Shown here: one piece after another, positions 1-14,695 of the stretch
Layout: each line of letters begins with the position of its first letter
Numbering within the stretch: the stretch's first letter is position 1
Source of the DNA: a virus
Taxonomy: Duplodnaviria; Heunggongvirae; Uroviricota; Caudoviricetes
Virus record (IMG/VR): IMGVR_UViG_2703718840_000006
Length of the DNA stretch: 17,364 bases
Direction: 5' to 3' (one strand)
The notes under the pieces: model-generated
The model's input: only the letters and a program-made list of their open reading frames with translations
Told to the model about the DNA's origin: nothing
Database searches by the model: none
Translations under genes and position numbers: made by a program

Positions 1-897
1 CTATGACTTGCTGTTTTCAGTAAGAGTCTTATCATCCAAAGAATTTATTCTAGAAATTCTTTTTAACTCATTAAGATAATCAACCTCGTTTTCTAAGAAC
101 CAATGAAGAACTTTAGAATTGCCAAGTAATTTATTAATATATGACTGGATTATAACGAATTTCAACATATCTGAACCATACTCGGTTTGAAGCTTTTTCG
201 TTTCTTCCGAAGTTGTTGCCATTTCTTGTTCCAGACGAAGTATGGTTTTTTTTATGTCCTTTTTATAGGGAGTGTTTTTCCCTTTATTTACTATCATCGA
301 TGCCGGTGTTGCATCCAAGATGCTCATTGCAAATTTTTTACTATAATTATCAAAATTAATCATTGTACCGACTGCTTCAATTTGGCGAATTGGCTTCATT
401 TTCCTCAAAACGTCAAATGTAGCCTTAGGTATATGTTTATCAGAAAGTTTCGCAATTACACTTGGATCTATGCCGTTCATCACATTCGCTTTATCTTTTA
501 TGGCATCAACAGATATGCCCAAAGCAGCACTAAGTTTTTCAATTGATACTTTTGCCAGAGACTTAATTATCATTCTATGTTCTTCAACTACATTTATATG
601 ATTCACTTGTTTGTTAGGAGTGAAAGCATCATCTATGCTCGAAAGTATACATGGAGCTTTTTCTATACCTAAGTCTTTTAAAGCCTCAACCCTTAAATGG
701 CCATCAAGTATCTTAGTGACATCTTTATCTTTGTCATAGAATACTATTATTGGTTCAATAATACCTAAGCTTTCGATAGAGGTAACTATTTGATGATATT
801 TATGGCTTCGCTTTACGTTTTCTAATAATTCCTTAGATGGAATTAACTTATTAGTTTCCAGGTAAATAAAATTATCGCCAAAACGTATCTGAATCAT
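1..897 (-). CDS. ParB/Srx-family protein (ParB N-terminal domain plus HTH-like region); distal gene of a tandem ParB-like pair
   Basis: 298-aa ORF with stop at 1-3. ParB-box-like GHLRVEA within IIVFYDKDKDVTKILDGHLRVEALKDLG, then an HTH-like segment (SIEKLSAALGISVDAIKDK). Start overlaps the upstream ORF by 4 nt; AGAGG lies 8 nt upstream of the ATG. No adjacent ParA. Confidence 0.6.
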   Translation of the reverse strand: MIQIRFGDNFIYLETNKLIPSKELLENVKRSHKYHQIVTSIESLGIIEPIIVFYDKDKDVTKILDGHLRVEALKDLGIEKAPCILSSIDDAFTPNKQVNHINVVEEHRMIIKSLAKVSIEKLSAALGISVDAIKDKANVMNGIDPSVIAKLSDKHIPKATFDVLRKMKPIRQIEAVGTMINFDNYSKKFAMSILDATPASMIVNKGKNTPYKKDIKKTILRLEQEMATTSEETKKLQTEYGSDMLKFVIIQSYINKLLGNSKVLHWFLENEVDYLNELKRISRINSLDDKTLTENSKS

Positions 898-1790
898 TTT
901 AATACCTCTTTGTTTACTGGGGTTAATATCTGAGATGGTAGTTCTGAAAGATTCTCTTGTTCAAGTATATGTTGAAAGCTTTTATTCATCATTATGATGT
1001 TAAAAATCTCATTTACTATTAGTAGGTTGGTTTTTATGAATTTTGAGTTGTTATAAACAGATTTATGTTCAGCGATACTATTTTCATAAAGCTCAATCAA
1101 CTCCTCTGCAGTCATCCTTTTTGATGGTTTGTGATAATAAAATCCGGCTGCTTTTGCACCTTTATTCCCAACTGTTCTTTGATTTAGAATGTGTTTTATC
1201 TTTATAATGTCCCGACTTTTTATTAATTTTTTATCATATGCTTCGGTAAGAATATCTTGTGCTTCCTCAGTTTCACATCTTGCAAATTGCACTGCGAGAT
1301 ACAGAGGCAAATTACCCCGTTCGACTGCTGAGAGAAGTTTATGCTCTCCCTTATCAAGTAGCATATTAATACTGCTCACCCAGTTCGATGAATATCCAGT
1401 AATCTCACTTATTTCGGAGTCTGAAAGTCCTCTGATTTTCATGTCTTTAATCACCTGTAATAACTCATTAGAACGTGGTCTTCTCCTTGCAATGTTTTCA
1501 ACTAAACTCATAACGTAAGCATCTTCTTCTGATACATCTCTTATAATTGCTGGAATAATAGTTTCACCTAATGCAACGAGAGCCTCTATTCTCCCTTGAC
1601 CACAAATTAAAGCATATTTGAAATCGCCTTCATCAATAGCTCTTACGCTTATTGGCTTGCTTAATCCTCTTTTTTTTATGCTTTCCTTTATTTCTTCATG
1701 CACTACCTTATTTCTTGTTCGTGGGTTAAGAAATTTTATTTTTGCAATCTCAATTTGAATTATTGGGAATTCATTTTTTTCAGGCAGCAT
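894..1790 (-). CDS. ParB-family protein (ParB N-terminal domain, HTH, C-terminal extension)
   Basis: 298 aa. Motifs GQGRIEALVALG and LVENIARRRP in the N-terminal domain, followed by an HTH-like LSDSEISEITGYSSNWVSSINMLL. GAGGG lies 7 nt upstream of the ATG; overlaps the recombinase stop by 11 nt, suggesting translational coupling. Confidence 0.65.
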   Translation of the reverse strand: MLPEKNEFPIIQIEIAKIKFLNPRTRNKVVHEEIKESIKKRGLSKPISVRAIDEGDFKYALICGQGRIEALVALGETIIPAIIRDVSEEDAYVMSLVENIARRRPRSNELLQVIKDMKIRGLSDSEISEITGYSSNWVSSINMLLDKGEHKLLSAVERGNLPLYLAVQFARCETEEAQDILTEAYDKKLIKSRDIIKIKHILNQRTVGNKGAKAAGFYYHKPSKRMTAEELIELYENSIAEHKSVYNNSKFIKTNLLIVNEIFNIIMMNKSFQHILEQENLSELPSQILTPVNKEVLK

Positions 1791-3336
1791 ATAGTTCCCT
1801 CACTTTCATGCGAGTAATAATTTGTAGAAGTTTATCAAGATTATCAAATCTATAGAGATCTAATCGAATGTTGTTTGTTTCCGTCATGCACATTTTATTA
1901 TATTCGTTTTCAATCTTTGGTATGATATAAAAATCAAGAGGTGAAATATTTTGTGAATTCATTCGTATAACAATTGTTATGTCTGCTTTCTGTGAGTTAT
2001 CAAACCGGACTTTCCATCTAAGTTTACCTGATTTCATATGTATGCATTTAGTAACAAGGACGGAAATTAAAAACTCATCATTGATGTAAAGCATTGGGGC
2101 ATATTTATACTCGTCTATATGACAGTTACTTTTTAAAATTTCACCCTTAAAATCCTCAATTATCTCTGAGTAAAATGATCTTAGTGCTTCATTTATTTTG
2201 AGATAGCTGTAATCATGTTCTGGCTTATAACCAATCAAAGTATATGCTCTTAAAAGACCACCAAATCGGGTTCTATAAACAGAAGATGAAGGGCCTGTAT
2301 CATCTTCATCAATGATAAAGCCTGATAGTTTTCCATTAGATTCTAATTTTTGTTTTAGTTTTTCTAATAGATCTTCATTAGTCAAATGAATGGATCGGAG
2401 CTGAATTATTTCTTGAGCTTTATTGTATTTTTTCTTTGAAATAATAGGTTTATATGCCTTGTCACATCTAACCCATTCATGTTTGGGGTTTTTTACAAGC
2501 CTACTTTTTAATTTAGATGAGGTTTTGTTATATATGTTGTTTCCAATATATTTTTCATTTGTCAAAATTTGATGTATTTTTGCACGAGTCCATAATGTTC
2601 CATTTTCTGCAGGTATGTTCTGTTCATTTAATCTCTCAGCAATAATGAATTCTGGGACGTTATTATCTATAAAGAGATCATATATTCTATTTACAATTTT
2701 TATTTCATTTTTTGGTCCCGGAATTAATATTACCCTATCTGTTTGAATACTCTTTCTTTTGCGGAAACTCAATATTTCTTTAGCTATGCCATTTTCGTCT
2801 ACTAAAAGACGTCTCAGCCCATAACCAGCCATACCGCCTTGATGATAACCAAGCTTTATTAAATTTACTTGCCCTATAAATACCTTTTCAGATAGATTCC
2901 TGCTGTGATATGCAGCACTAGATCTTTTTATATTCAGTATAACAGAGGACTCTAAAGGGAAATCTTTAGTGGGTATAGGTTCGGAACAATATATAAGATC
3001 TACACCATTTCTCTCAAATAGAAAGGAATAATATGCCGCTTCATCACTATTTTGAAAACGACCAAAACGGCTCACATCATAAAATAATACAGCCTGTATA
3101 TCTATTTTCTTTTGTTCTACATCGCTAAGTAACTGCTGCAAAGAATGCCTGCCTACGATACTGACTCCGCTCTTACCTGCATCATCGTAGGTATAAGCGA
3201 TTTCCATATTGTTCTTTTCAGCATAATCTTTGATATATTCGGACTGATTATGTAAAGAATATTGCTGATGGTCGGTAGACATCCTCAAGTACTGCGCGAC
3301 CCTAACTCTATGATTTTTGTCATTTTCGCTAGCCAT
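1780..3336 (-). CDS. Large serine recombinase (resolvase catalytic domain plus recombinase domain, divergent C-terminus)
   Basis: 518 aa. N-terminal YLRMSTDHQ (catalytic Ser context) and DDAGKSG; recombinase-domain-like GYHQGGMAGYGLRR. No clear CxxC zinc ribbon seen in the C-terminal ~200 aa. GAGG lies 9 nt upstream of the ATG at 3336. Confidence 0.75.
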   Translation of the reverse strand: MASENDKNHRVRVAQYLRMSTDHQQYSLHNQSEYIKDYAEKNNMEIAYTYDDAGKSGVSIVGRHSLQQLLSDVEQKKIDIQAVLFYDVSRFGRFQNSDEAAYYSFLFERNGVDLIYCSEPIPTKDFPLESSVILNIKRSSAAYHSRNLSEKVFIGQVNLIKLGYHQGGMAGYGLRRLLVDENGIAKEILSFRKRKSIQTDRVILIPGPKNEIKIVNRIYDLFIDNNVPEFIIAERLNEQNIPAENGTLWTRAKIHQILTNEKYIGNNIYNKTSSKLKSRLVKNPKHEWVRCDKAYKPIISKKKYNKAQEIIQLRSIHLTNEDLLEKLKQKLESNGKLSGFIIDEDDTGPSSSVYRTRFGGLLRAYTLIGYKPEHDYSYLKINEALRSFYSEIIEDFKGEILKSNCHIDEYKYAPMLYINDEFLISVLVTKCIHMKSGKLRWKVRFDNSQKADITIVIRMNSQNISPLDFYIIPKIENEYNKMCMTETNNIRLDLYRFDNLDKLLQIITRMKVRELYAA

Positions 3337-3506
3337 GCACGAAACCTCATGGATGATTCAATACAATGTAGTGGATAAAATTGATCAAATTTCAACCGAA
3401 TTCAACTGTTTTATCATTGATTAGAGCGAATTTGGTAGATCTTCGAGGTGTATGATAATCGAGAAGAGATGTGAATTATTTAGCTGATATGACCGACAGC
3501 TTTCGT

Positions 3507-3556
3507 TATGTGGACTCAATGTCCCCATTTGTAAATGGCTATGCTTAGTCCACATA
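3507..3556. repeat. Nested inverted repeat (10-bp arms TATGTGGACT/AGTCCACATA around an inner CCATTT-GT-AAATGG palindrome)
   Basis: Read directly: perfect 10-bp arms at 3507-3516 and 3547-3556, inner palindrome at 3525-3538. Lies between the integrase stop and the recombinase start. Candidate protein-binding or recombination site; no U-tract, so not a canonical terminator. Confidence 0.4.
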
Positions 3557-3618
3557 GGTTAATGGTGTGATTATTAATTCTTTAACTAAATCAAGATAGT
3601 TAATCCATCATGGGAGAG

Positions 3619-4848
3619 TTATGCGGCAATAACTTTGCATTTTTGAGACGAAACATAGTCACTCCACCATTGCATGAGAACCACCCGTTCAGTGAGATAC
3701 TCTGCACGATTGTAGGCTGCAATTATTTCATCTTTCTTCGAGTGGGCAAGGGCGGCTTCTAAGACATCAGTCCTAAACTTGCCAGACTCCTCAGCAGCCG
3801 TTCTAGCAATGGATCGCATACCGTGAGCTACAAGCTCACCTCCGAAACCCATACGGATTATGGCCGCATTAGCTGTTTGTTCATGCATGTGATTGAGTGG
3901 AGCTTTGATACTGGGGAACACCCACTCTCTATGCCCGCTGATGACTTTCATTAAATCCAAAACTCGCAAAGCTTCTTTGCTCAGTGGAACTTTGTGAGGC
4001 TTCTTCATTTTCATAAACTCCGCCGGGATGTTCCACATGCCAGTTTCAATATCAATATCTGACCATCTTGTGCGAACAGCTTCACCTGGGCGAACCCATG
4101 TGAGAAGTTGCCACTCAATCAGTAGCCTTGTTTCCAAACGGATAGAAGCATTGTTTAGAGCAACCAAGAAGCGAGGGAGTTCGGAAGGGGGTAATGCTGG
4201 CATATTCTGTTTTTTTGGCTTGCTGAACCGTTGCCCCAGGTTGTCTGCCGGGTTGAATTCTATGAGTTCTTCTGTTGCTGCATAGCGGAAAATTTCATTC
4301 AGGCGGGATATGATGCGGCGAAGTGTTTCAAGGACACCTCGTTTTTCTATGGGTTCTAAATGCTGTTTAAGCATTTTAGGGCGAATCTCCTTAATTGGGG
4401 TATCACCCAATGTGGAAAAGATATTTCTCTCTAGGCTTCGCCAGATGTCGTTAGCATGATCTTGGGAGATGCCTGACGTTTTGACTTTCTCATCAAGCCA
4501 CTTCTTGGCTACTGCTTGAAATGTATGTTCCGTGGCATCTTTCAGTGCATTGGCTTTTTGGTTGTTATGAACTTGGGGGTCTATACCATTTGTAAGCAAC
4601 GACAAGTATTCATCACGTAAAGCTCGTGCCTTCGCAAGTGTAAGGTGAGGATAGGTTCCTAAGCTCACCTTAGTTCGCTTTTTGGTCACAGGCACTGCAT
4701 ATCTGAAATACCAATTTTTCTTCCCTCCCTTCGCCAGGGGAGCGATTCGCAACAGCAAACCATCGCCGTCAAAAAGGTTAACCTCTTTTTCGGCAGGTTT
4801 GGTGCTTTTGATTTCAGTGTCAGTGAGCTTCTTAGCGATTTTGGCCAT
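3619..4848 (-). CDS. P4-type tyrosine integrase (arm-binding N-terminal domain plus catalytic domain)
   Basis: Start chosen at the internal ATG (4846-4848, MAKIAKKLTDTEIK) with GAGGG upstream; the track ORF extends to 4929 with a non-canonical start. N-terminal KLTDTEIKSTKP...LFDGDGLLL...WYFRY is typical of P4-like integrases; C-terminal HGMRS and AAYNRAEY supply the HxxR and catalytic Tyr. Lies immediately downstream of the ssrA 3' fragment, same orientation. Confidence 0.85.
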   Translation of the reverse strand: MAKIAKKLTDTEIKSTKPAEKEVNLFDGDGLLLRIAPLAKGGKKNWYFRYAVPVTKKRTKVSLGTYPHLTLAKARALRDEYLSLLTNGIDPQVHNNQKANALKDATEHTFQAVAKKWLDEKVKTSGISQDHANDIWRSLERNIFSTLGDTPIKEIRPKMLKQHLEPIEKRGVLETLRRIISRLNEIFRYAATEELIEFNPADNLGQRFSKPKKQNMPALPPSELPRFLVALNNASIRLETRLLIEWQLLTWVRPGEAVRTRWSDIDIETGMWNIPAEFMKMKKPHKVPLSKEALRVLDLMKVISGHREWVFPSIKAPLNHMHEQTANAAIIRMGFGGELVAHGMRSIARTAAEESGKFRTDVLEAALAHSKKDEIIAAYNRAEYLTERVVLMQWWSDYVSSQKCKVIAA

Positions 4849-5014
4849 GTTTGGGACCCTCGATTTTAGGACCCATCTTCGTGGGTCCCATTCAGGGTGC
4901 CATAACTCGTAGTTCTCAGCAATTCTCACTAGACTACAATAGACGTAAAAAAGCCCGCAGAGCTTGTGCTGTGCGGGCTTAGTAGACTTTACTGAACTTC
5001 AGTACATCAATATT

Positions 5015-5047
5015 TGGTGGAGCTGGCGGGAGTTGAACCCGAGTCCG
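5015..5047 (-). ncRNA. ssrA: 3'-terminal fragment of tmRNA gene ssrA (T-arm, acceptor 3' strand, CCA); integration-site core copy, not a full gene
   Basis: Minus-strand read CGGACTCGGGTTCAACTCCCGCCAGCTCCACCA matches my recollection of the E. coli tmRNA 3' end (GGGTTCAACTCCCGCCAGCTCCACCA). The adjacent upstream sequence is AT-rich and unrelated to tmRNA, and would overlap the methyltransferase CDS, so only the terminal ~33 nt are present. Confidence 0.75.
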
Positions 5048-5119
5048 TATTTTTATAATTAGCTGAAATAAAACGATTAATACTAACCATTTTATTCTGC
5101 GGATCTTTTGCGGCTCCTT

Positions 5120-6019
5120 TTATGTCTGGATGTGGTCGTCAACACATCCTCTTTTAAATATAGGCGCTTTTACCTTAGTTGGATCATCTGTTTTAAAGAT
5201 TTTCAATCGTTCACTGAAGAACATTACCTCAGATCCTTTGTACCGATCTTGAGCACTGTAGTTTATTCCATATACTAATGATGATGTCTTATACATAGCT
5301 TGGATCTCAGGAGTGTTATCGTAAGAAACAATCCAAGGCGTTTTAATATTATTCTGTACGACTTTTGCAACCCTAACATGATCATCATGATCATAATGGT
5401 TGATATATAAACCTTTACCTTTTATGTAATAAGGTGGATCCAAATATGTTAATGAGTTTTGTGGCAATTGAATAACTATTTTTTTTATGAAATCAATTGC
5501 ATCCATGTTATATAAATCTATTCTGTGACGATTTTCTGATATTTTATGGATTCGAGAAATCAAATCACTCTTATTATAGCGAGCGTCAAGCTTCCATTTC
5601 CCTTCTTGATTTTTACCGCCAATTACACCACCTTTTAATATTCCAGAACGATTTGTTCTATTGAGAAAAAAGGTTGAGAAACCAATTGTTAAAAGATCAT
5701 GGTCTTTAGGATTATTAATTATATCTTTCTGCCTAAACCATTCATCCATTGTAACTTCTGTTCTTTCAATTAAAGAACATAATTGATCTGCATGATTTAA
5801 TACACTGTGCCAAAAAGCATAAACAGAAATATTAATATCATTAAGGATGATTTTTTCAGCTGCATTTAGATGTAACAGTTTCAATGCTAAACCAGCACCC
5901 CCAGCATATGGTTCGGCATAATGTATAGGCGAAAGATTATTTTCTTCAATAATCCGAAGCATGAAATTTGCAAGCTTGCCTTTACCGCCAGGATAGCGAA
6001 GTGGGGTGTTAAAACGCAT
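5120..6019 (-). CDS. Dam-family (D12 class) N6-adenine DNA methyltransferase
   Basis: 299 aa. Motifs in Dam order: LRYPGGKGK, YAEPYAGGAGLA (AdoMet-binding), FFLNRTNRSG, YLDPPYY (catalytic DPPY). GAGG lies 6 nt upstream of the ATG at 6019. Target sequence cannot be read from sequence. Confidence 0.85.
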   Translation of the reverse strand: MRFNTPLRYPGGKGKLANFMLRIIEENNLSPIHYAEPYAGGAGLALKLLHLNAAEKIILNDINISVYAFWHSVLNHADQLCSLIERTEVTMDEWFRQKDIINNPKDHDLLTIGFSTFFLNRTNRSGILKGGVIGGKNQEGKWKLDARYNKSDLISRIHKISENRHRIDLYNMDAIDFIKKIVIQLPQNSLTYLDPPYYIKGKGLYINHYDHDDHVRVAKVVQNNIKTPWIVSYDNTPEIQAMYKTSSLVYGINYSAQDRYKGSEVMFFSERLKIFKTDDPTKVKAPIFKRGCVDDHIQT

Positions 6020-6053
6020 ATGATACCTCTAAATGTCAGATCTAAAGTATATC

Positions 6054-6092
6054 AAAAAAAGGGCTTTATGGCCATCACATAAAACCCTTTTT
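6054..6092. terminator. Bidirectional intrinsic-terminator-like hairpin between the ATPase and methyltransferase genes
   Basis: A7 (6054-6060), stem GGGCTTTATG / CATAAAACCC (one mismatch) with 7-nt loop (6061-6087), then T5 (6088-6092). On the minus strand the hairpin is followed by a U7 run. Confidence 0.45.
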
Positions 6093-6098
6093 AATCAA

Positions 6099-7832
6099 TT
6101 AGTTATCTGACAGATATGATGAGATGGTAGCAGAATCGACACCATGTCCACTTATCATAATAACTTTAAGACTCTTTATTAGTTCATTCTTGAAGCTATC
6201 CGATTGCACAGGATTTTTCTCGACCCAATATCGATATGGGTTATCTTTAACTCGTCCTTTGACTTGGTCCTGAAATTGAGTCGTATGTGCAAAATCTTTA
6301 AACAGTTTTCTCACTCTCCCGCCATGATTTTTGTTAACTTTTTTATAATTATCTATAAGGATTTTTAAATCAATCGGAGCGTTACCAATCTTTAGCGTTG
6401 TAATTATGTCTTTAGCTGTTTTCATAAAAACAGATTTTGTAAATTTATTTTTATTTTCCCAATATGCATCATCAGGTGGTAAATTATATAAAAACTCAAA
6501 AATCATTTGGTCTGGAGGTAAGGTGCTTGGAAGCAAACATAAGTTTTTTTCTTTTTTGGCTTTTTTTGCATTAGCACTGTTGTCGTGAACAACATCACCG
6601 TCTAAGACGATCAAGCTTTTAGCTGTAAATTCTGGTATTTTTCTTGCCATTAAGTCAAGCATGGCAGAGCAGCTAATATTTATATTTCCTAATGGATTTA
6701 ATATTTTATTTATTTTTCGATCTGTTATCAATTGTTTGAAAAAGTCGAAACCTTCTTTGTCTTCAAAATATACATTTGCTTTTGGAAGACAAATGTCATC
6801 ATTAATTTTTACAGTTTCAACATGTAAATCAGCGTGGATATCTGTCCATGAAAGATTATTCTTTGTTTTAATATCTCCATATGTGTCTGTAAGATATATT
6901 GTTTTAAAGCTATCACTATCTTGTTTTGAACGATTATAGATATCCTCTATTATTAATGGAGAGTGCGAGGTCATGATTATTTGCAGATCGTATTGTTTTG
7001 CTGCTTTAGTTAGAATATTAATTAGCTCTAACTGTGCAGCAGGGAAAAGACCTGCATCGGCTTCATCAATTAACAATATTCCGCCATGATAATCAGAATA
7101 AGTTTCCTTCAATCTTTTAAATGAAAAAATTGCTTGGATTAATTGTCCAACATTATCTTCACCAACAGATACTGATTGGTGATCATAATTGTCACCATGG
7201 ACAACCATTGAATCGATAGTACCTTTTGTTGCTGTTACTGAGCTTCCATTGTTTTTTAGTAAGAGTTGGTTACTCATCATTCTGATTTCATCAGAATTTT
7301 CATTGATGTACTGAACATCCCGTGTTGAGTAATCAGTCCTTAATGTAATAGGAAGAAGTCGTGCTAAGCTTAAAAAAATAACAGGATGAGTAACGTTTCT
7401 ACTTTGGTTTTTTTCCGGTATTGAATCATTTCCCCTGACTACAGGCCTTGATTTATCTCTGTCACTGTAGCTGTATAAACCTAATGTTAGTTTTTCAAGA
7501 TGTTTGTTCGATGCACCATCATAGACACTAATTTTGACGTCCATTGAACCAGGAACATCAAATTGTTCTGAAAGCCTAAAATGTTCGCTGAAAGCTGACT
7601 TGAAGCTGCCATTTGTTAATGTTTTATATTGTGTTAAATCAGTCTCAGGGTTTTTGGTAAAGTCCTTTGTAAAGCTAAATATTTGGGCGATAATGCCAAG
7701 AATTGTGGATTTAGATGTGCCATTTTTACCACAAATAACAGTTAGGCGAGAACCAAACTCGATGTTTATATTTTTCAGTCCGCGAAACTTCACAACATTT
7801 ATATTTTTTAGTTTGGTAATTTGATTTGCCAT
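6099..7832 (-). CDS. ABC/SMC-type ATPase with TOPRIM-like C-terminal region (OLD-family or fused PARIS-like nuclease candidate)
   Basis: Walker A GKNGTSKST, Walker B ILLIDEAD, H-loop IMTSHSP. The C-terminal ~250 aa contain FEDKEG and LDGD acidic motifs about 55 residues apart, consistent with TOPRIM (not verified). Start placed at internal ATG 7832 (MANQITKLKNI; GGAG upstream; Walker A then sits at the usual distance); the track ORF starts at 7883 with no SD. Confidence 0.7.
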   Translation of the reverse strand: MANQITKLKNINVVKFRGLKNINIEFGSRLTVICGKNGTSKSTILGIIAQIFSFTKDFTKNPETDLTQYKTLTNGSFKSAFSEHFRLSEQFDVPGSMDVKISVYDGASNKHLEKLTLGLYSYSDRDKSRPVVRGNDSIPEKNQSRNVTHPVIFLSLARLLPITLRTDYSTRDVQYINENSDEIRMMSNQLLLKNNGSSVTATKGTIDSMVVHGDNYDHQSVSVGEDNVGQLIQAIFSFKRLKETYSDYHGGILLIDEADAGLFPAAQLELINILTKAAKQYDLQIIMTSHSPLIIEDIYNRSKQDSDSFKTIYLTDTYGDIKTKNNLSWTDIHADLHVETVKINDDICLPKANVYFEDKEGFDFFKQLITDRKINKILNPLGNINISCSAMLDLMARKIPEFTAKSLIVLDGDVVHDNSANAKKAKKEKNLCLLPSTLPPDQMIFEFLYNLPPDDAYWENKNKFTKSVFMKTAKDIITTLKIGNAPIDLKILIDNYKKVNKNHGGRVRKLFKDFAHTTQFQDQVKGRVKDNPYRYWVEKNPVQSDSFKNELIKSLKVIMISGHGVDSATISSYLSDN

Positions 7833-7890
7833 GTTTGTATCTTGCTCCGTAAAATGGCCACAAATTGTGGCCAATAGTTTCATGCTTGGA

Positions 7891-9057
7891 TTATATTGTT
7901 ATCTTCTTCAAGCTTGTTTGTCCATCATATTCCTTCAGATATGAGCCATAGTGCCTGAAAAGCATCTCCGGTCCTTTATGCCCCATTTGAGCTGCAAGCC
8001 AAAACAGGTTTGCTCCTCGGCTGATATGGCTGGTGGCGAATGTATGCCTGGTTTGATATGGATTTCTGTATCGAATACCTGCTTTCCGCAATGTTGGAAC
8101 CCATGCTTTTTTCCTGATTGCATCAGCACTTGCCCAAGGCTTATTGGTCTTTGGGTCTTCAAAGACAGTAGCATCCTTCATGAATGTAAATGGCTTCTGA
8201 TTTATCAGCGCCAACATTGCTTCTTCTGTCAGTTCAACTTTACGAGTACCTGCTTTTGTCTTTGTCCCTTTGATAACACCGACAACACTTGCGCTCTGGA
8301 CATGGGCAGTTTTTCCAACAAAGTCGATATCACGCCATCGAAGGGCACATAATTCAGAACTACGCAGGCCTGTATGTATAGCGAACCGGAACAGATTCTC
8401 CCATTGTTTGTTTCCGGCTGCTGCTAGTAATGCATCAACTTCTGCTGGTGATAGCGGATCAACCACGTAGCTGCTTTCTGCTTCTGACTTATCACTTTGG
8501 TAGCGCGAAGCAGTTACCAACGATACGGGGTTAATTTGAAGTACCCCATCGGTTACGGCTTCATCAAGTGCTGACCGCAGGAAAGATAACTGGTTGCGAA
8601 TTGTTTTTAAGGTCGTTTTCTGGCTTTGAATCCACGCTTTCAGGATTGCTGGTGTTAATTCACTTGCAGGGCAAATGTGGAGTGAGGCTAACGCACTACG
8701 GCATTTTTTATAACCACCAATCGTTGAGGGTGAGAGTTTTCTCGTTTCGCAGATTTCAAGGTATTCGTCCAAGTACATTTTTACCGTTTTGCCTGCAGCA
8801 GCATTACCAAAAATTTTCAAACGAGCAGAACGGGGAAAATATTCCGCATAAATGAATGTTCCCCTTTCGATCTTATTATGAATTTCGCCGAGTGTGCGCT
8901 CGGCGTATTTAATGTTCTTTGGTGTTACTTCCAGATTGGAAAGAGGCTCACGACATTTAACTCCTTTATAGGTGAAAGTTATATTGATCGTTTCGCCCTG
9001 GCGGTGTTTCCTGATTGTTACGCCGCGCGGTAGTTTGAGCAGTTTTGTCTGGCCCAT
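7891..9057 (-). CDS. int: Lambdoid-type tyrosine integrase
   Basis: 388 aa. C-terminal catalytic signature QTRHTFATSH...GH...RHYGSY. Preceded by an overlapping excisionase-like gene. Transcribed toward the ssrA-derived att side, as in lambda. Confidence 0.85.
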   Translation of the reverse strand: MGQTKLLKLPRGVTIRKHRQGETINITFTYKGVKCREPLSNLEVTPKNIKYAERTLGEIHNKIERGTFIYAEYFPRSARLKIFGNAAAGKTVKMYLDEYLEICETRKLSPSTIGGYKKCRSALASLHICPASELTPAILKAWIQSQKTTLKTIRNQLSFLRSALDEAVTDGVLQINPVSLVTASRYQSDKSEAESSYVVDPLSPAEVDALLAAAGNKQWENLFRFAIHTGLRSSELCALRWRDIDFVGKTAHVQSASVVGVIKGTKTKAGTRKVELTEEAMLALINQKPFTFMKDATVFEDPKTNKPWASADAIRKKAWVPTLRKAGIRYRNPYQTRHTFATSHISRGANLFWLAAQMGHKGPEMLFRHYGSYLKEYDGQTSLKKITI

Positions 9058-9283: not shown

Positions 9284-9499
9284 TTAATTTTGTTCCCTGG
9301 TTGCTACCTGTTTTATTGGCCTGATGCTGTCCAGTAGCAGACGGCGACGCATGTTAGGTGCACCCCAACGGTAACCAGTCTTTTTGTCGTAGGATTCACA
9401 ACGTCCGGCAACCCAGGACGTTTCAGTGGAATGTAATTTCATCCGCTTTTCACCGTCTCGGGTGATAACAATTCCTGTATGAGTTTTTATCACGCTCAT
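9284..9499 (-). CDS. Hypothetical small phage protein (position of yfdT in KplE1-like operons)
   Basis: 71-aa ORF overlapping the upstream gene by 4 nt (operon context). No motif recognised. Confidence 0.45.
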   Translation of the reverse strand: MSVIKTHTGIVITRDGEKRMKLHSTETSWVAGRCESYDKKTGYRWGAPNMRRRLLLDSIRPIKQVATREQN

Positions 9500-9858
9500 T
9501 TCTTAGTCTCTGGTGCTTTCGGCATTACTGCCCAGTGAGTGATATTGACGTTTTCAAGGTCCCCGACCTGAAATGTCCACTGCCATTCTCCGGTTTCTTT
9601 TTGTCCCCAGGTGTACCAGAGAGAACGCCAGCCAATCAGCCAGCCTTCTCCGTTAGCATCAAATAACAGAACACTTTCATTTGCTGGAGGCAGTTCAGCT
9701 GACACTGGTATTATTTTGCTTTCCAGTGCCGCACATTTAGCTTCAAGCGCGTCGAATTTACGTACCAGGTACTCAGCATTTGTTTCGTTCACTTTCAGAT
9801 CTCGCGGTACACATTTCCCGCGAAGAAACCCTTCCATTTCGAAAACATTCATGCGCAT
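9496..9858 (-). CDS. DUF551-like phage protein (YfdS-like by size and synteny)
   Basis: 120 aa; Trp-rich C-terminus (GWLIGWRSLWYTWG...ITHWAVMP) resembling DUF551. Same size and operon position as E. coli yfdS, from memory. Confidence 0.5.
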   Translation of the reverse strand: MRMNVFEMEGFLRGKCVPRDLKVNETNAEYLVRKFDALEAKCAALESKIIPVSAELPPANESVLLFDANGEGWLIGWRSLWYTWGQKETGEWQWTFQVGDLENVNITHWAVMPKAPETKK

Positions 9859-10385
9859 TTGCGTAATTCCGATAATTCGTTAAAGCGTTTCATAAACATC
9901 CCGTAGGCATGGCCTGGAGCCAGTGGAATAACTTTGAACATCTCTGTTGCCGGGATACCTTCCAGTACAGGCCAGAAAGAGCCATCATCAAGCCCGAGAT
10001 CGCGGCGTTCGGTTGCCAGCATGATGAGATCGGCATATTTCACGGGCGTGCTCATAACCGGGGGTAACCCGTATTTCTCACGGATGACGACGTCTATTTT
10101 TTCTTCCATCCGTTTATAGTCAGGAAGAAGTCGTTTCAGTGGTGCGGGGATGTCCTGGCAATACGCTTCTGTTGCATCATGCATTAACGCTTCAAAAGCA
10201 AATTCCTGCGGCACCAGCTGGCTGCAAAGCACTGCATGCTGGGCGACACTGTAGAAGTGTGAAAGATGTCCTGCAAAGCGACAGATATTTGAAAGGGAAA
10301 CCGCGATATCGTTAATCACGATGTCGTCTTTATTTATCTTGTCATAATAAAAATGCTTCCCGGAAAAAGTTTTAATAAATGACAT
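9849..10385 (-). CDS. HD-domain phosphohydrolase (YfbR/YfdR-like 5'-deoxynucleotidase family)
   Basis: HD motifs (SHFYSVAQHAVL; LMHDATEAY). Start placed at ATG 10385 (MSFIK; GGAG 7 nt upstream), giving 178 aa, the size I recall for YfdR; the track ORF starts 9 codons earlier. Confidence 0.75.
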   Translation of the reverse strand: MSFIKTFSGKHFYYDKINKDDIVINDIAVSLSNICRFAGHLSHFYSVAQHAVLCSQLVPQEFAFEALMHDATEAYCQDIPAPLKRLLPDYKRMEEKIDVVIREKYGLPPVMSTPVKYADLIMLATERRDLGLDDGSFWPVLEGIPATEMFKVIPLAPGHAYGMFMKRFNELSELRKCA

Positions 10386-10512
10386 TTTGTTCTCCACGTA
10401 TATGCGCTGCACCGCGCTGAATTTTGGTTAAAGAAAACCCTCGCCATCAGGCGATTATTGAGTCAATTATGTTTCCATAAATGCCCCCGCAGGGGCATTT
10501 GCAGTAAGGAAA

Positions 10513-11337
10513 TCAGGCGGTAAAAGTACCAATAAAGGTTTCTACTTTGCTGTCTTTGAATTTCTCAACAAGCAGATCACGAAATTCGTTAGCCATTTCT
10601 TCCTGCACTGCTTCCAGCTGAATAATGCGCAGAACCAGTACCGGACGATCGCCAGTGATAATGCTGAGGCGTAATTTAAACGGACGTTCTTTCAGGCCTT
10701 CAAACGGAACGCATTTAAATTCAAATGCCACTGGCATAATGTCTTTGGTCTTCGCTTCGACAGATTCCATCAGGGAGCGTTTGCCGCTGAAGTCATTATC
10801 TTCAAAATCAGCGGTCTGGTTTGCTTCAATCGTGATTTTACGGACTGCCGCAGCCGCTTTTGTTGCCTGAATGGCGTCACCATTAGCATCAAAGCCCACA
10901 AGGTAGTCGGCCCAGTCTTCAATCCATTCTGCCAGTGACTTCTGGGAGTTACGCTCGCCGTTAACAGACAACAGGGCAGAGAACGGTGCTGTCTTTTTCA
11001 GTTTGAGAGTGGCAGTGTTATCTGCGTGACCTGGCTCATCAATAGTACCCAGGTTAAGCACACTGACGGCACGCATATTATCGGCATCGATAAAGCAGCG
11101 GGTGCCTTCATCTGCAAGATCTTTAGAATAACGGGTAAAGTCATCGATGCTGGCAGTGGAAAGCGCACCACGGAAACGGAAACGATTTAAATTAAATTTT
11201 TCCAGATCATGAATGCGGAAATTCTCAGGCAATGCCACAGCATCGGCACCAATCTTACTGATAATTTCATTAACACCCTGAGCAGAAATAAGGGCATGGA
11301 TTTGATTAATTGCGGTTGCGTCTAAGTTCTGAGACAT
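10513..11337 (-). CDS. DUF2303-like phage protein (YfdQ-like by size and synteny)
   Basis: 274-aa ORF, the size I recall for E. coli YfdQ, in the same operon order. No catalytic motif recognised. Confidence 0.6.
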
Positions 11338-11402
11338 AATAAGTCCTCACTATATAAAGATATTCAGTGATGAGATAAATAATCAGTTTATTAAGTATGA
11401 TA

Positions 11403-11765
11403 TTAACGACCTGCTGCGCGGAGTTTTCCGTCAGGTTCACCGGCAAGAGTCAGTAATTGTCCCTGGTCTTCCTGCAGAATAGTCAGGCGACCACCGCGAT
11501 TGACATACATCGGCGTTTCGGTGGTGTCTTCTTCGGAAATTTTCCCGCGGTTAGTCGGGCGAACATATGAGAGTTTGTGTTTGATTTTCACACGGTTCTC
11601 ATCAAATGGTTCGATTTCCAGGTTGAGTGAGACCTTACCTTTGGTTTTCGTGTTCATCACACCGGAAGCGACTTCACTGAGAACTGCGCCGATTTTTGTT
11701 TCAAATACGCCGCCGTCCAGCTCCCCGATAAATGCCTGCACATCAGTACTGCGTTCGCTAGCCAT
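11403..11765 (-). CDS. Hypothetical early-left phage protein (YfdP-like by size and synteny)
   Basis: Start set at the internal ATG (MASERSTDVQAF) with AGGAGC 7 nt upstream, giving 121 aa. The 197-aa track ORF has a Cys/Arg-rich N-terminal extension that overlaps the leader and looks non-genic. Confidence 0.55.
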   Translation of the reverse strand: MASERSTDVQAFIGELDGGVFETKIGAVLSEVASGVMNTKTKGKVSLNLEIEPFDENRVKIKHKLSYVRPTNRGKISEEDTTETPMYVNRGGRLTILQEDQGQLLTLAGEPDGKLRAAGR

Positions 11766-12373
11766 TTTGTTGCTCCTCATCATATCGACCCTGCAAGGCC
11801 GATTAGTTTCTCCACAAAACAGAGAAGAACACCTGCGGTGGCAGCCGCCCGGATGGATTGGGTTATGAGCCCGTCGTCCGGTGATGCTCTTCTCTGTTTT
11901 GTAAAAAGAGCGGTACCAGCCGGAAGCAAGTGTACAAACTGGTACCGCCAAAGCAGTGGCTGTTGTGGTGGGGTTGTCACTCAGGCGTATGGTCAACCTG
12001 ACAATCCGGTGTCCTCAACGGGGAAAGAGTAACCCCGCCATACTTACCGCCGCGCCATTTCGCGGATGACCACAACGCTGAGAGCACTTAGCCAGTTACG
12101 GCACCACACTTTGTCGCGGCTCCATAAATGCCCTCATCGTTGCACCCTGGTCTCTTCCCAGGCGTCAAACCGGATCGCCACGCTGGTTAGGCGTCTTATC
12201 AGCATCATCATTGACTTGCACATTCCGGCTACCTGGTTTGTTTGCCCTAGCAAGGAGTGGATTGTCCCCTTTAACGTCCCCAGACCGCTAACGACGCATG
12301 TGCCATACGCCGTGTTACAACCAAATTTTGTTAGTACCTTGTTTGTTGGTCTGGAAAGAAAGATAAAATGAAA

Positions 12374-12411
12374 TTGCGCGTTGTGCAAGTGCTTTGTTGC
12401 GGGATATGCAA
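12374..12411. promoter_or_regulatory. Candidate OL operators: two 15-bp TTGC-N7-GCAA sites, with probable leftward pL
   Basis: TTGCGCGTTGTGCAA (12374-12388) and TTGCGGGATATGCAA (12397-12411); the first is nearly identical to an OR site (TTGCGCGTTAAGCAA, 13180-13194). Just downstream of the cI terminator, as in lambdoid immunity regions. Confidence 0.45.
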
Positions 12412-12428
12412 TTTAATGGGTAATGAAA

Positions 12429-12446
12429 AGCCACCTTCGGGTGGCT
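12429..12446 (-). terminator. Intrinsic terminator downstream of cI
   Basis: Perfect 7-bp stem AGCCACC/GGTGGCT with TTCG tetraloop; on the minus strand it is followed by UUUUCAUU. Located 20 nt after the cI stop. Confidence 0.5.
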
Positions 12447-12466
12447 AATTGATGAGGAGGTAAGGG

Positions 12467-13159
12467 TTAATTGTGTCGCTTAAGGGTTTGTGACTGGCTG
12501 ATTAAGACCTTTCCAAAGACCATAAACCGGTGTTCATTTTCGCTGGTAATTCCCCATTCACGGTAAATCTGGTTATCAGAAATCACCAGTAGTTTGTCAG
12601 GTATCATTTGCAGTCGTTTGACATAAATTTTATCATCAAAACCAAATACATAGATACCATCTCCATCAAACTGATTGATACTGACATCAACGAAGATGAG
12701 ATCTCCTGGCTCAATGGTTGGACACATACTGTCCCCACGAACGTTGATAACTTTAATGTGATTGGCTGGTCGTCCGCCAAACATCGATACAGCATTATCA
12801 GTTCTGTATTCAATGGCATGAATCACATCAATGACATCACCGCCCTGGATAAGGCCATTTCCCGCACTGGCACTGACATCCAGCATTTCAATACGGAATA
12901 CATCCTTCACCTGCGCAACATCCTCACTAATACTGTTTTTACATACAGTATTACTTTTGAAGTCTGAGGTAAAGAGATCAGCAATATCAACACCTAAGCT
13001 CCTGGCAATATTACTCAGGGCTTGTTCAGTGAATTGTTTCTGCTTACCTGTTTCCAGGCGTGAGATATTCGCCGCATCCACTCCTATTGCTTCAGCGAGA
13101 TCGGCGATTTTCATGTTCTTCGCCTGGCGAAGTTGTCTGACTCGATTTCCTATGTTCAT
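12467..13159 (-). CDS. cI: CI-like phage repressor (HTH_XRE N-terminal domain plus S24 LexA-like autopeptidase domain)
   Basis: 230 aa. N-terminal HTH (IADLAEAIGVDAANISRLETGKQ); C-terminal S24 signature GDSMCPTI (Ser nucleophile) and downstream VKR (Lys). Divergent from a cro-like gene across an operator-rich 97-bp intergenic region. Confidence 0.9.
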   Translation of the reverse strand: MNIGNRVRQLRQAKNMKIADLAEAIGVDAANISRLETGKQKQFTEQALSNIARSLGVDIADLFTSDFKSNTVCKNSISEDVAQVKDVFRIEMLDVSASAGNGLIQGGDVIDVIHAIEYRTDNAVSMFGGRPANHIKVINVRGDSMCPTIEPGDLIFVDVSINQFDGDGIYVFGFDDKIYVKRLQMIPDKLLVISDNQIYREWGITSENEHRFMVFGKVLISQSQTLKRHN

Positions 13160-13256
13160 GCGTTTATTACATTTCTTTATTGCGCGTTAAGCAAATCAAC
13201 TTGCGCAAAATAGTTGCGTGAAATAATATGCTTATCACGCAATATGTGGAGGTTAT
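13160..13256. promoter_or_regulatory. OR-like divergent promoter/operator region between cI and cro
   Basis: TTGC-N7-GCAA site at 13180-13194, degenerate copy ATGCTTATCACGCAA at 13228-13242, palindrome TTGCGCAA at 13201-13208, inverted TTGCGTGA/TCACGCAA arms. Candidate pR: -35 TTGCGC (13201-13206), 17-bp spacer, -10 TAATAT (13224-13229). GGAGG RBS at 13248-13252 before the cro ATG. Confidence 0.55.
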
Positions 13257-13394
13257 ATGCAATCACCATTACGGAATGTGCGTAAAGCGCACGGATTTAC
13301 TTTGCAGCATGTTGCTGCGGGCGTTCAGGTCAATCCAGCGACGCTGAGTCGTATTGAAAGACAGGAACAAATTCCATCTACCGTCCATGAATGA
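13257..13394 (+). CDS. cro: Cro-like HTH protein, C-terminally truncated by a deletion junction
   Basis: 45-aa ORF not in the supplied track (too short). HTH_XRE-like segment FTLQHVAAGVQVNPATLSRIERQEQ. The ORF ends abruptly where lambda-G-like sequence begins. Confidence 0.55.
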   Translation: MQSPLRNVRKAHGFTLQHVAAGVQVNPATLSRIERQEQIPSTVHE

Positions 13395-13581
13395 AGCCGT
13401 TAAACAGATTGAGCAGGAAGTGCTTACCACCTGGCCCACGGAGGCAATTTCTCATGCTGAAAACGTGGTGTACCGGCTGTCTGGTATGTATGAGTTTGTG
13501 GTGAATGATGCCCCTGAACAGGCAGAGGACGCCGGGCCTGCAGAGCCTGTTTCTGCGGGAAAGTGTTCGACGGTGAGCTGA
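13387..13581 (+). pseudogene. G: Remnant of tail assembly chaperone G (C-terminal part only), fused to the truncated cro region
   Basis: Translation PSMNEAVKQIEQEVLTTWPTEAISHAENVVYRLSGMYEFVV...PVSAGKCSTVS matches my recollection of the lambda gpG C-terminus. ATG at 13387 overlaps the cro stop (ATGAATGA); no SD. N-terminal half of G is absent. Confidence 0.6.
13557..13563 (+). other. Programmed -1 frameshift slippery heptamer G GGA AAG (G-T frameshift site)
   Basis: GGGAAAG in the lambda X XXY YYZ register relative to the G-fragment frame (GCG GGA AAG). The downstream T-like ORF is in the -1 frame and overlaps by 19 nt. Confidence 0.6.
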
Positions 13582-13997
13582 GTTTTGCCCTGAAACTGGC
13601 GCGCGAGATGGGGCGACCCGACTGGCGTGCCATGCTTGCCGGGATGTCATCCACGGAGTATGCCGACTGGCACCGCTTTTACAGTACCCATTATTTTCAT
13701 GATGTTCTGCTGGATATGCACTTTTCCGGGCTGACGTACACCGTGCTCAGCCTGTTTTTCAGCGATCCGGATATGCATCCGCTGGATTTCAGTCTGCTGA
13801 ACCGGCGCGAGGCTGACGAAGAGCCTGAAGATGATGTGCTGATGCAGAAAGCGGCAGGGCTTGCCGGAGGCGTTCGTTTTGGCCCGGACGGGAATGAAGT
13901 TATCCCCGCTTCCCCGGATGTGGCGGACATGACGGAGGATGACGTAATGCTGATGACAGTATCAGAAGGGATCGCAGGAGGAGTCCGGTATGGCTGA
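13563..13997 (+). CDS. T: T portion of the tail assembly chaperone G-T frameshift product
   Basis: ORF in the -1 frame relative to the G fragment with no ATG of its own (track start is GTG). Sequence (FDGELSFALKLAREMGRPDWRAMLAGMSSTEYADW...GVRYG) matches my recollection of lambda gpT. Its stop overlaps an ATG GCT GAA CCG GTA (MAEPV) H-like start. Confidence 0.6.
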   Translation: MFDGELSFALKLAREMGRPDWRAMLAGMSSTEYADWHRFYSTHYFHDVLLDMHFSGLTYTVLSLFFSDPDMHPLDFSLLNRREADEEPEDDVLMQKAAGLAGGVRFGPDGNEVIPASPDVADMTEDDVMLMTVSEGIAGGVRYG

Positions 13998-14332: not shown

Positions 14333-14695
14333 ATGCTCTTTGACTTGGCTTCCGGGGACGCACTATTTATCTCTGAACCAGGCCCATTAGCGGAAAATGT
14401 CACCTGGTTGTCGCCGGAAGGGGAATATCAGAAGTGGAACGGTACAGCCTGGGTGAAAGATGCAGAAGCAGAAAAACTATTCCGGATCCGGGAGGCGGAA
14501 GAAACAAAAAACAGCCTGATGCAGGTAGCCAGTGAGCATATAGCGCCGCTTCAGGATGCTGTAGATCTGGAGATCGCAACGGAGGAAGAAAATTCGTTGC
14601 TGGAAGCCTGGAAAAAGTATCGGGTGTTGCTGAACCGTGTTGATACATCAACTGCACCTGATATTGAGTGGCCGATAATTCCTGTAACATCATAG
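14333..14695 (+). CDS. tfa: Tail fibre assembly protein (lambda Tfa family, short form)
   Basis: 120 aa; ATG with AGGGGA upstream. Sequence [14 protein letters not shown]...[19 protein letters not shown]...[25 protein letters not shown] closely matches my recollection of the lambda Tfa C-terminal two-thirds. Confidence 0.8.

Follow-up and report, generated by a model that had tools for sequence, protein, structure and literature searches.

Dyads of the consensus TTGCG-N5-CGCAA as probable CI/Cro operators on both sides of cI in a decayed lambdoid prophage

Which DNA sites are read by the repressor of a lambdoid prophage, and do they occupy the places of operators in a lambdoid switch? This question is raised by a 17,364-nucleotide stretch (the window; all coordinates refer to it) of the virus record IMGVR_UViG_2703718840_000006, an Escherichia coli-type chromosome segment with a decayed lambdoid prophage. 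In an initial annotation, made from the letters alone, a 15-bp motif, TTGC-N7-GCAA, was noticed on both sides of the repressor gene cI and was proposed to be the CI binding site at the right and left operators (OR and OL). Our analysis suggests, with a probability of about 0.87, that these dyads are the CI/Cro operators of a lambdoid switch with the consensus TTGCG-N5-CGCAA. The position of the sites, their dyad symmetry, the contrast between arms and centres, the overlap with promoters and the layout in relatives all fit CI operators at OR and OL, as judged from sequence. The genes and sites in question are the following; scores in bits are those of the position weight matrix (PWM) described below.

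12467-13159, minus strand: cI repressor gene, 230 amino acids, HTH_3 and Peptidase_S24 domains (Pfam).
12429-12446, minus strand: intrinsic terminator of cI (terminator scan), hairpin AGCCACC-CGAA-GGTGGCT followed by TTTTC.
13257-13394, plus strand: truncated cro gene, 45 amino acids, HTH_3, with the PATLSRIER helix kept and the C-terminal half lost.
12374-12388: putative OL1, the distal left site, TTGCGCGTTGTGCAA, exact match and top score (17.4 bits).
12397-12411: putative OL2, the cI-proximal left site, TTGCGGGATATGCAA, exact match, 16.2 bits.
13180-13194: putative OR site O21, TTGCGCGTTAAGCAA, exact match, 15.7 bits.
13201-13208, plus strand: octamer TTGCGCAA, the first six bases of which are the candidate -35 hexamer of pR (TTGCGC).
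13228-13242: putative OR site O69, ATGCTTATCACGCAA, one mismatch, 14.7 bits.
13278-13292: O119, a possible third site on the OR side, GTGCGTAAAGCGCAC, in cro codons 8-12, 10.8 bits.

Each string quoted in the initial annotation was found where it had been placed, and the motif does flank cI: there are three exact copies of TTGC-N7-GCAA in the 17,364 bp, two on the left of the gene (12374 and 12397) and one on the right (13180), against 0.57 expected, all of them within the about 190 nt of non-coding DNA bordering cI. The degenerate copies mentioned there proved to be genuine as well, since 13228 has one mismatch and 13278 keeps a perfect TGCG-N5-CGCA core with G/C as outer bases. One-mismatch copies are otherwise scattered in the window and unremarkable, ATGCTTATCACGCAA being the exception. 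OL1 and OL2 are 23 bp apart from centre to centre (22-24 bp in relatives), O21 and O69 are 48 bp apart, here as in every lineage, and O119, which reads GTGCGTAAAGCGCAC in the sub-clade of the window, follows O69 at 50 bp. O69 overlaps the last 2 nt of the pR -10 hexamer and the predicted +1, and this overlap accounts for its leading A in place of T. The octamer TTGCGCAA resembles a pair of overlapping half-sites, or else the left half of a weak site, O42; in the window the right half of the 15-mer that starts with it is absent (TTGCGCAAAATAGTT), and in several lineages a one-mismatch 15-mer begins there.

In order to score the sites, a symmetrised PWM was built from 58 sites of relatives, to which neither the window nor its close kin contributed. 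The consensus of this matrix is TTGCG(T/A)AWT(A/T)CGCAA. The motif search of the whole window that the initial annotation had called for revealed no similar frequency elsewhere: the five best PWM matches are the five sites named above (12374, 12397, 13180, 13228 and 13278), and the next one reaches 8.9 bits. In the complete 44.5-kb genome of phage mEp460 the four best matches are the four homologous sites.

Chance matches, or shared ancestry without function, could in principle produce dyads of this kind. At least three exact copies were reached in 3 of 200 shuffles, any trio of 4-N7-4 palindromes with the same arms within 1 kb was reached in 21 of 300, and many of the relatives are close kin. 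In the comparison with relatives the arms of the dyads are fixed while centres and spacers diverge, in lineages with cI 39-75% identical. The comparison set consisted of 8 phage loci and 17 further loci from a genome scan with cI alignment (Shigella, Citrobacter, Kluyvera, Pseudescherichia, Klebsiella, Buttiauxella, Trabulsiella, Pantoea, Mixta, Proteus and Phaseolibacter; their cI proteins range in identity from 97% to 39%). In all, over 25 relatives show the layout, Escherichia and Salmonella ones included. DNA identity of the immunity region ranges from 69 to 98%: it is 97-98% to PhiR63_1, 1720a-02, Stx2a_1447/WGPS2 and mEp460, and falls to 90% for SfII, about 75% for ST64B and about 70% for the Citrobacter phage phiNP and Klebsiella prophages.

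In each of the eight phage loci a pair of dyads spaced by 22-24 bp closely follows the cI terminator, 53-81 nt past the stop codon of cI. Two more dyads stand on the other side of the gene, one at a distance of 21 nt from its ATG and the other, of the form ATGC-N7-GCAA, at +69. An extra dyad at +119, within cro, is present in ST64B, in phiNP and in the Klebsiella phages. The sites at +20 to +22 and at +68 to +70 from the cI ATG are kept in all relatives examined, as is TTGCGCAA at offset 42, and a TTGCG-N5-CGCAa/t site occurs at offset 119-121 in 13 of the 17 diverse relatives. On the OL side two or three sites 22-24 bp apart follow the cI terminator in most loci (22 of 25); sal3 and C. amalonaticus have one site, and Pseudescherichia and Phaseolibacter none nearby. 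A hairpin with a T-run stands at the position of the cI terminator in nearly all relatives examined, and the SfII record labels it a terminator.

The contrast between arms and centres was measured in a gap-free alignment of 15 lineages. The dyad arms have conservation values of 0.95-0.97 (O21 0.95, O69 0.97), their centres 0.67 and the adjoining spacer 0.53; TTGCGCAA at +42 reaches 1.0, being identical in 15 of 15, and ATTACA at +7 to +12 reaches 0.98. Additionally, 80 viral contigs with cI at least 99% identical were scanned, a set of near-identical copies that is useful for micro-variation and not for diversity. Both OL sites were found in 79 of the 80, and the TTGC and GCAA arms of the sites found were always intact, variation being confined to positions 5-11. 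The fixed arms, the constant positions relative to the cI ATG and terminator, and the return of the same four sites as the four best matches in the independent mEp460 genome effectively refute chance or functionless ancestry, to which we give next to no credence.

The placement of the dyads gains in meaning from three candidate promoters:

13201-13206 (-35, TTGCGC), 17 nt, 13224-13229 (-10, TAATAT), plus strand: candidate pR, predicted start at about 13236.
13194-13189 (-35, TTGCTT), 17 nt, 13171-13166 (-10, TGTAAT), minus strand: candidate pRM, with the right half of O21 as its -35 hexamer, predicted start at about 13159.
12388-12383 (-35, TTGCAC), 17 nt, 12365-12360 (-10, TATCTT), minus strand: candidate pL, with the right half of OL1 as its -35 hexamer, predicted start at about 12353.

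The operators in the cI-cro gap (13180 and 13228) overlap the predicted pRM -35 and the pR -10/+1, and the second cluster (12374 and 12397), beyond the cI terminator, overlaps the predicted early-left promoter. A hexamer of the form TA..AT is present at the pR -10 position in all relatives, and downstream of pR come the Shine-Dalgarno sequence of cro (GGAGG, 13248-13252) and its ATG at 13257. The pRM -10 hexamer, the complement of the near-invariant ATTACA, is only six nt from the ATG of cI and no Shine-Dalgarno sequence stands ahead of the gene, thus a leaderless cI mRNA is predicted; lambda pRM makes a leaderless cI message. The position of the pL -10 hexamer is conserved in E. coli, Shigella, Citrobacter, Klebsiella, Kluyvera and Buttiauxella, and ST64B has TAATTT. 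The initial annotation had placed OL over a leftward promoter toward a yfdP-like operon, and the conserved TTGCAC-17-TATCTT, which reads out of the distal OL site, bears this out. The individual promoter assignments, made from conserved hexamers, are likely to be correct.

Two other promoter candidates were rejected. A scanner-called minus-strand TCCACA-16-TATTAT has its -35 hexamer in the Shine-Dalgarno region of cro and is not conserved in relatives. A CII-type TTGC-N6-TTGC copy at 13303-13316 (plus strand, in cro), considered as a pRE element, has the wrong orientation and is not conserved in the Citrobacter relatives.

The same palindromes might instead act at the level of RNA, as small hairpins, terminators or attenuators, and a generic scan indeed flags 12374-12388 and 13277-13293 as terminator-like hairpins on the plus strand. 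Their stems are only 4-6 bp long, and the T-runs that follow are not conserved in relatives. Furthermore, one arm sequence is shared by all sites, a constraint that hairpin formation would not impose, and the centres vary without any need of pairing; two of the sites lie upstream of the predicted starts, over -35 hexamers, and would be untranscribed from their own promoters. An RNA function is accordingly very improbable, and the dyads are better read as protein-binding sites.

Which protein reads them is the next question. The divergent pair of a two-domain repressor gene (helix-turn-helix, HTH, plus S24) and a small HTH Cro gene is present, Cro being truncated here; intact Cro proteins of relatives have 74-87 amino acids in the alignment. 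HTH_3 and related Pfam matches cover cI residues 3-64, the S24 match has E = 6.5e-19, the PHROG match is to transcriptional repressor / CI-like repressor, and phage records annotate the homologues as cI. The residues A99-G100, S144 (GDSM) and K181 are invariant in an alignment of 14 sequences. The protein is 100% identical to the cI of many viral contigs and 70-100% identical to the E. coli/Shigella, ST64B and Klebsiella members of the alignment; at E <= 1e-10 its family comprises 1172 protein clusters, and relatives of it are encoded by 445 viral contigs.

A model by AlphaFold2 (AF2) has a mean pLDDT (predicted local distance difference test) of 50.9 for the whole cI, and only the N-terminal domain is usable (pLDDT 70-88). 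In this model the domain has five helices (residues 3-13, 18-25, 29-37, 45-55 and 59-63), with the predicted HTH at helices 2-3 (residues 18-25 and 29-37). No close relative of cI was found among solved structures, where the matches were generic HTH and UmuD ones. Helix 3 (residues 29-37), AANISRLET(GKQK), is nearly invariant across every lineage with TTGCG arms, and the PATLSRIER helix of Cro is similar to it, as expected if both proteins read the same sites.

Proteins other than CI have to be considered as the main ligand of real protein-binding dyads: Cro alone, a YmfL/CII-position protein, or a recruited host regulator. The resemblance of the Cro helix to that of cI speaks for the first, and sequence alone cannot separate the two. 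TTGC has also been quoted as the half-site of lambda CII (PMC2629481); however, the dyads are inverted repeats with N7 spacing and not direct TTGC-N6-TTGC repeats. Moreover, the sites persist in a remnant with cro truncated, ymfL deleted and cI intact. The LexA SOS box (CTGT-N8-ACAG), considered solely because the C-terminal domain of the repressor is LexA-like, is not matched, TTGCG-N5-CGCAA being without CTG...CAG arms. A host regulon is disfavoured, as neither the rest of the window nor the rest of the mEp460 genome contains such sites.

Phage Fels-1, a natural control of specificity, is informative with respect to a host factor. It encodes a distantly homologous repressor (37% identity over the N-terminal domain; the record notes similarity to ST64B), and its dyads are placed alike: a single one near pRM, a pair at pR and another past the cI terminator. 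In contrast to the present sites its arms are TATGT-N7-ACATA, and the two pR sites are adjacent (18 bp). Since Fels-1 keeps the layout with different arms, and Salmonella is the host genus of both Fels-1 and ST64B, the palindromes track the lineage of the repressor and not the host. Another main ligand is thus improbable, and CI, with Cro where it is intact, is preferred. The candidate Fels-1 operator near pRM is ATGTATTTTATACAT. Among the more distant homologues, TGCG-N5-CGCA dyads were also seen at the same places in Yersinia phage YenM_30.14 and Cronobacter phage ENT47670; the arms of the latter are ATGCG-N5-CGCAT, and its helix 3 is almost identical to that of Fels-1.

If the dyads are operators of CI, the switch could work as follows. 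Dimers of the 230-residue repressor would recognise the 15-bp dyads through the AANISRLET helix of a 434-like five-helix HTH domain. Occupancy of OL1 and OL2 would shut pL, the head of the yfdP-yfdQ-yfdR-yfdS early-left operon; the repressor at 13228 would cover the pR -10/+1 and block the transcription of cro, and at 13180 it would down-regulate pRM, probably as negative autoregulation. Repression of the three promoters is predicted because half-sites double as the -35 hexamers of pL and pRM, and the octamer as that of pR. TTGCGCAA at the pR -35 and the dyad at 13278 would probably be auxiliary or weak sites; O119 is only possibly an operator site. The invariance of A99-G100, S144 and K181 suggests that RecA-stimulated, SOS-triggered self-cleavage should release this repression. 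In relatives with intact cro, Cro would bind the same sites.

Several observations weigh against this reading, or at least limit it. The promoter hexamers are weak: the -35 elements match the consensus at 3 of 6 positions, and because of this the generic promoter scan called none of pR, pL and pRM. The score of O119 is inside the chance range of the shuffles, and the coding constraint of cro (L/V-R-K-A/S-H/Q) could be partly behind its conservation. The training sites of the PWM were picked by motif similarity at conserved positions, so this test is not fully independent. The spacing of 48 bp between O21 and O69, about 4.6 helical turns, is a poor fit to lambda-style adjacent cooperative binding. 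A test for covariation between helix 3 and the half-site failed: the arms of Fels-1 differ from those of ENT47670 despite nearly the same helix 3. Helix 3 alone therefore does not explain specificity, which must depend on further residues, and the two phages form a useful pair for mapping them. The literature search found no binding, footprint or transcript data for this repressor. The evidence of the window alone is moderate and not decisive; it is the comparative data that make the case.

Compared with known systems, the immunity region is of the standard lambdoid kind, its repressor has an HTH of the 434 type, and the view of how such switches work is unchanged. Like lambda, it has a divergent cI (HTH plus a LexA-like S24 autopeptidase) and cro, dyads of odd length on both sides of cI that overlap the predicted pR, pRM and pL, an OL pair spaced by 23 bp, and a predicted leaderless cI mRNA. 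The sequence of the operator is unrelated: the lambda operator is a 17-bp TATCACCGCCAGTGGTA-like site, whereas here it is the 15-bp TTGCG-N5-CGCAA. Lambda OR consists of three tandem sites 23-24 bp apart, an arrangement absent here, where two strong sites 48 bp apart are accompanied by an octamer and a site in cro; OL has two sites in place of the lambda OL1-3. Additionally, the pRM-proximal site lies over the -35 hexamer with no OR2-type activation geometry evident, and the HTH is of the 434/XRE type and not of the lambda cI type.

The N-terminal domain of cI matches the 434-repressor-derived chain dh434 (1sq8) with E = 2e-4. As in 434 and P22 c2, the model has five helices with the HTH at helices 2-3, and the short conserved arms around a variable centre echo 434. 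The 434 operator is ACAA-N6-TTGT with a non-contacted centre; here the half-site is TTGCG, the length is an odd 15 bp and the layout of the sites is different. In 434 the base-contacting residues are Gln28, Gln29, Ser30 and Gln33, and A29, A30, N31 and R34 appear to stand at these positions here.

The nearest systems are ST64B, SfII, mEp460, Stx2a_1447/WGPS2, phiNP and the Klebsiella prophages, with the same repressor family, operator layout and yfdP/yfdQ/yfdR early-left operon. Records of the ST64B/SfII/mEp460 type annotate cI and Cro, and operators are not annotated in the records examined. The literature on the operators of ST64B, SfII, CPS-53, mEp460 and ymfK, and on the motif itself, gave no description of them; of a different repressor it has been said that the specificities of such repressors often remain unknown (PMC12315714).

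The initial annotation had also held that the sites define the immunity specificity of this prophage. The operators themselves are supported; the specificity is not particular to this prophage and belongs to a broad class, since the arms and the cI recognition helix are common to cI proteins across many genera. Counted from the pR start, the dyads appear to stand at about -49, 0 and +49, with the invariant TTGCGCAA at -35, and repression and autoregulation might be exerted through wrapping or looping of about 100 bp, with the OL pair 0.8 kb off, and not through adjacent-site cooperativity. As arms and recognition helix are fixed from Escherichia to Proteus, broad cross-genus immunity could follow and, if true, would cover Stx2a-converting phages that carry the same cI. 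Taken jointly, an OR architecture unlike that of lambda with repression by wrapping or looping and an unusually broad cross-genus immunity is a tentative proposal which we consider rather unlikely.

What is gained is a concrete consensus for the operator, TTGCG-N5-CGCAA, together with a map of the candidate promoters. Both concern a repressor that is very common among enterobacterial prophages and whose family includes Stx2a-converting phages, the serotype-converting phage SfII and the Salmonella phage ST64B. The consensus allows OR and OL to be annotated in thousands of genomes. It is predicted that the remnant, with intact cI and operators and a dead cro, still confers immunity to phages of the family and keeps SOS-inducible control of the yfdP-yfdS operon; the lytic programme would no longer be possible, because cro is truncated.

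The state of the prophage can be seen from the neighbouring features:

7891-9057, minus strand: integrase.
9284-11765, minus strand: small early genes, then yfdS-, yfdR-, yfdQ- and yfdP-like genes.
13557-13563: GGGAAAG slippery site of a lambda-like tail G gene.
13563-13997: tail T part (PF06223).

Collinearity with mEp460 is 95.6% over 9452-13383 and ends at 13383, where the homology to other relatives stops likewise (breakpoint 13383/13384). The cro gene is cut at about codon 42 and joined to tail-gene debris, the 3' part of a lambda-like tail G/T gene pair. The remnant is without ymfL, rha and the replication, Q, lysis and head genes, a block that is deleted compared with a related strain, in which the full cro-ymfL-rha-...-Q-lysis series stands at the same locus, adjoining ssrA. 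The prophage is defective, given the truncation of cro at 13383, and is of the ST64B/SfII/mEp460 type.

Between yfdP and cI about 700 nt hold no credible gene. An open reading frame (ORF) at 12066-12371 (plus strand, 101 amino acids), which terminates 3 nt short of OL1, belongs to no Pfam or PHROG family and is a hypothetical protein in mEp460; 41 full-length, intact copies were found among 80 viral contigs, and most of them have an Ile codon in place of its ATG. An ORF at 12134-12388 (minus strand) has no Pfam or PHROG family either, and both are probably non-coding. No plausible minus-strand ORF for an N-like gene was found after pL, between 12353 and yfdP, and PGAP annotates nothing there in the related strain. 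In this respect the region departs from lambda; according to the SfIV paper (PMC3851460), N is missing from phages of the SfII type.

The predicted pL start and the yfdP ATG are separated by an apparently untranslated leader of about 590 nt (11766-12353, minus strand) that contains a terminator-like hairpin. Its first 80 nt form a closed two-hairpin fold (z = -3.0), not obviously conserved in SfII, and one possibility is that a put-like RNA helps early-left transcription to cross the leader. In the ST64B-type relatives (ST64B, phiNP and others) a leader element, AGCGAACAGGCAGGACGCCCACGAAGTAGCCGCC, is conserved about 20-30 nt downstream of the pL -10, strongly so from Salmonella to Pantoea; the leader of the window differs. 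The small GGC...GCC hairpin within this element is replaced by GGCG-AAA-CGCC in Citrobacter FP75, and the element may be a nut- or put-like RNA signal.

The terminator-like hairpin upstream of yfdP lies at 11903-11948 on the minus strand (GCGGTACCAG...CTGGTACCGC and a T-run). The segment 11905-11966 corresponds to one end of a 193-nt RNA, sRNA-17, reported from an mEp460-like prophage of E. coli K1 RS218 (PMC7719688, supplementary alignment), of which the window keeps only about 62 nt. From the coordinates of that paper, sRNA-17 is probably on the pL strand and ends at this hairpin. Just upstream of yfdP there is also a perfect 15-bp inverted repeat (11814-11828 and 11888-11902, ACAAAACAGAGAAGA and TCTTCTCTGTTTTGT) enclosing about 59 nt, and the DNA of this region is conserved in ST64B.

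An Rfam search gave no match in 11850-13300 even at E <= 1, and its sole match in the window is a full-length one to RF02111 (IS009) at 14454-14652 (plus strand; 220 bits, gathering score 117), amid tail-fibre remains on the right side of the truncated core of the prophage. Positions 1-7883, left of the integrase, form a separate minus-strand island with two ParB-like genes, a large serine-recombinase-family gene, an integrase-domain gene, a Dam-type methylase and an AAA ATPase (gene names taken from the annotation of the related strain UK_Dog_Liverpool), and this island and the prophage look like tandem mobile elements at the ssrA locus.

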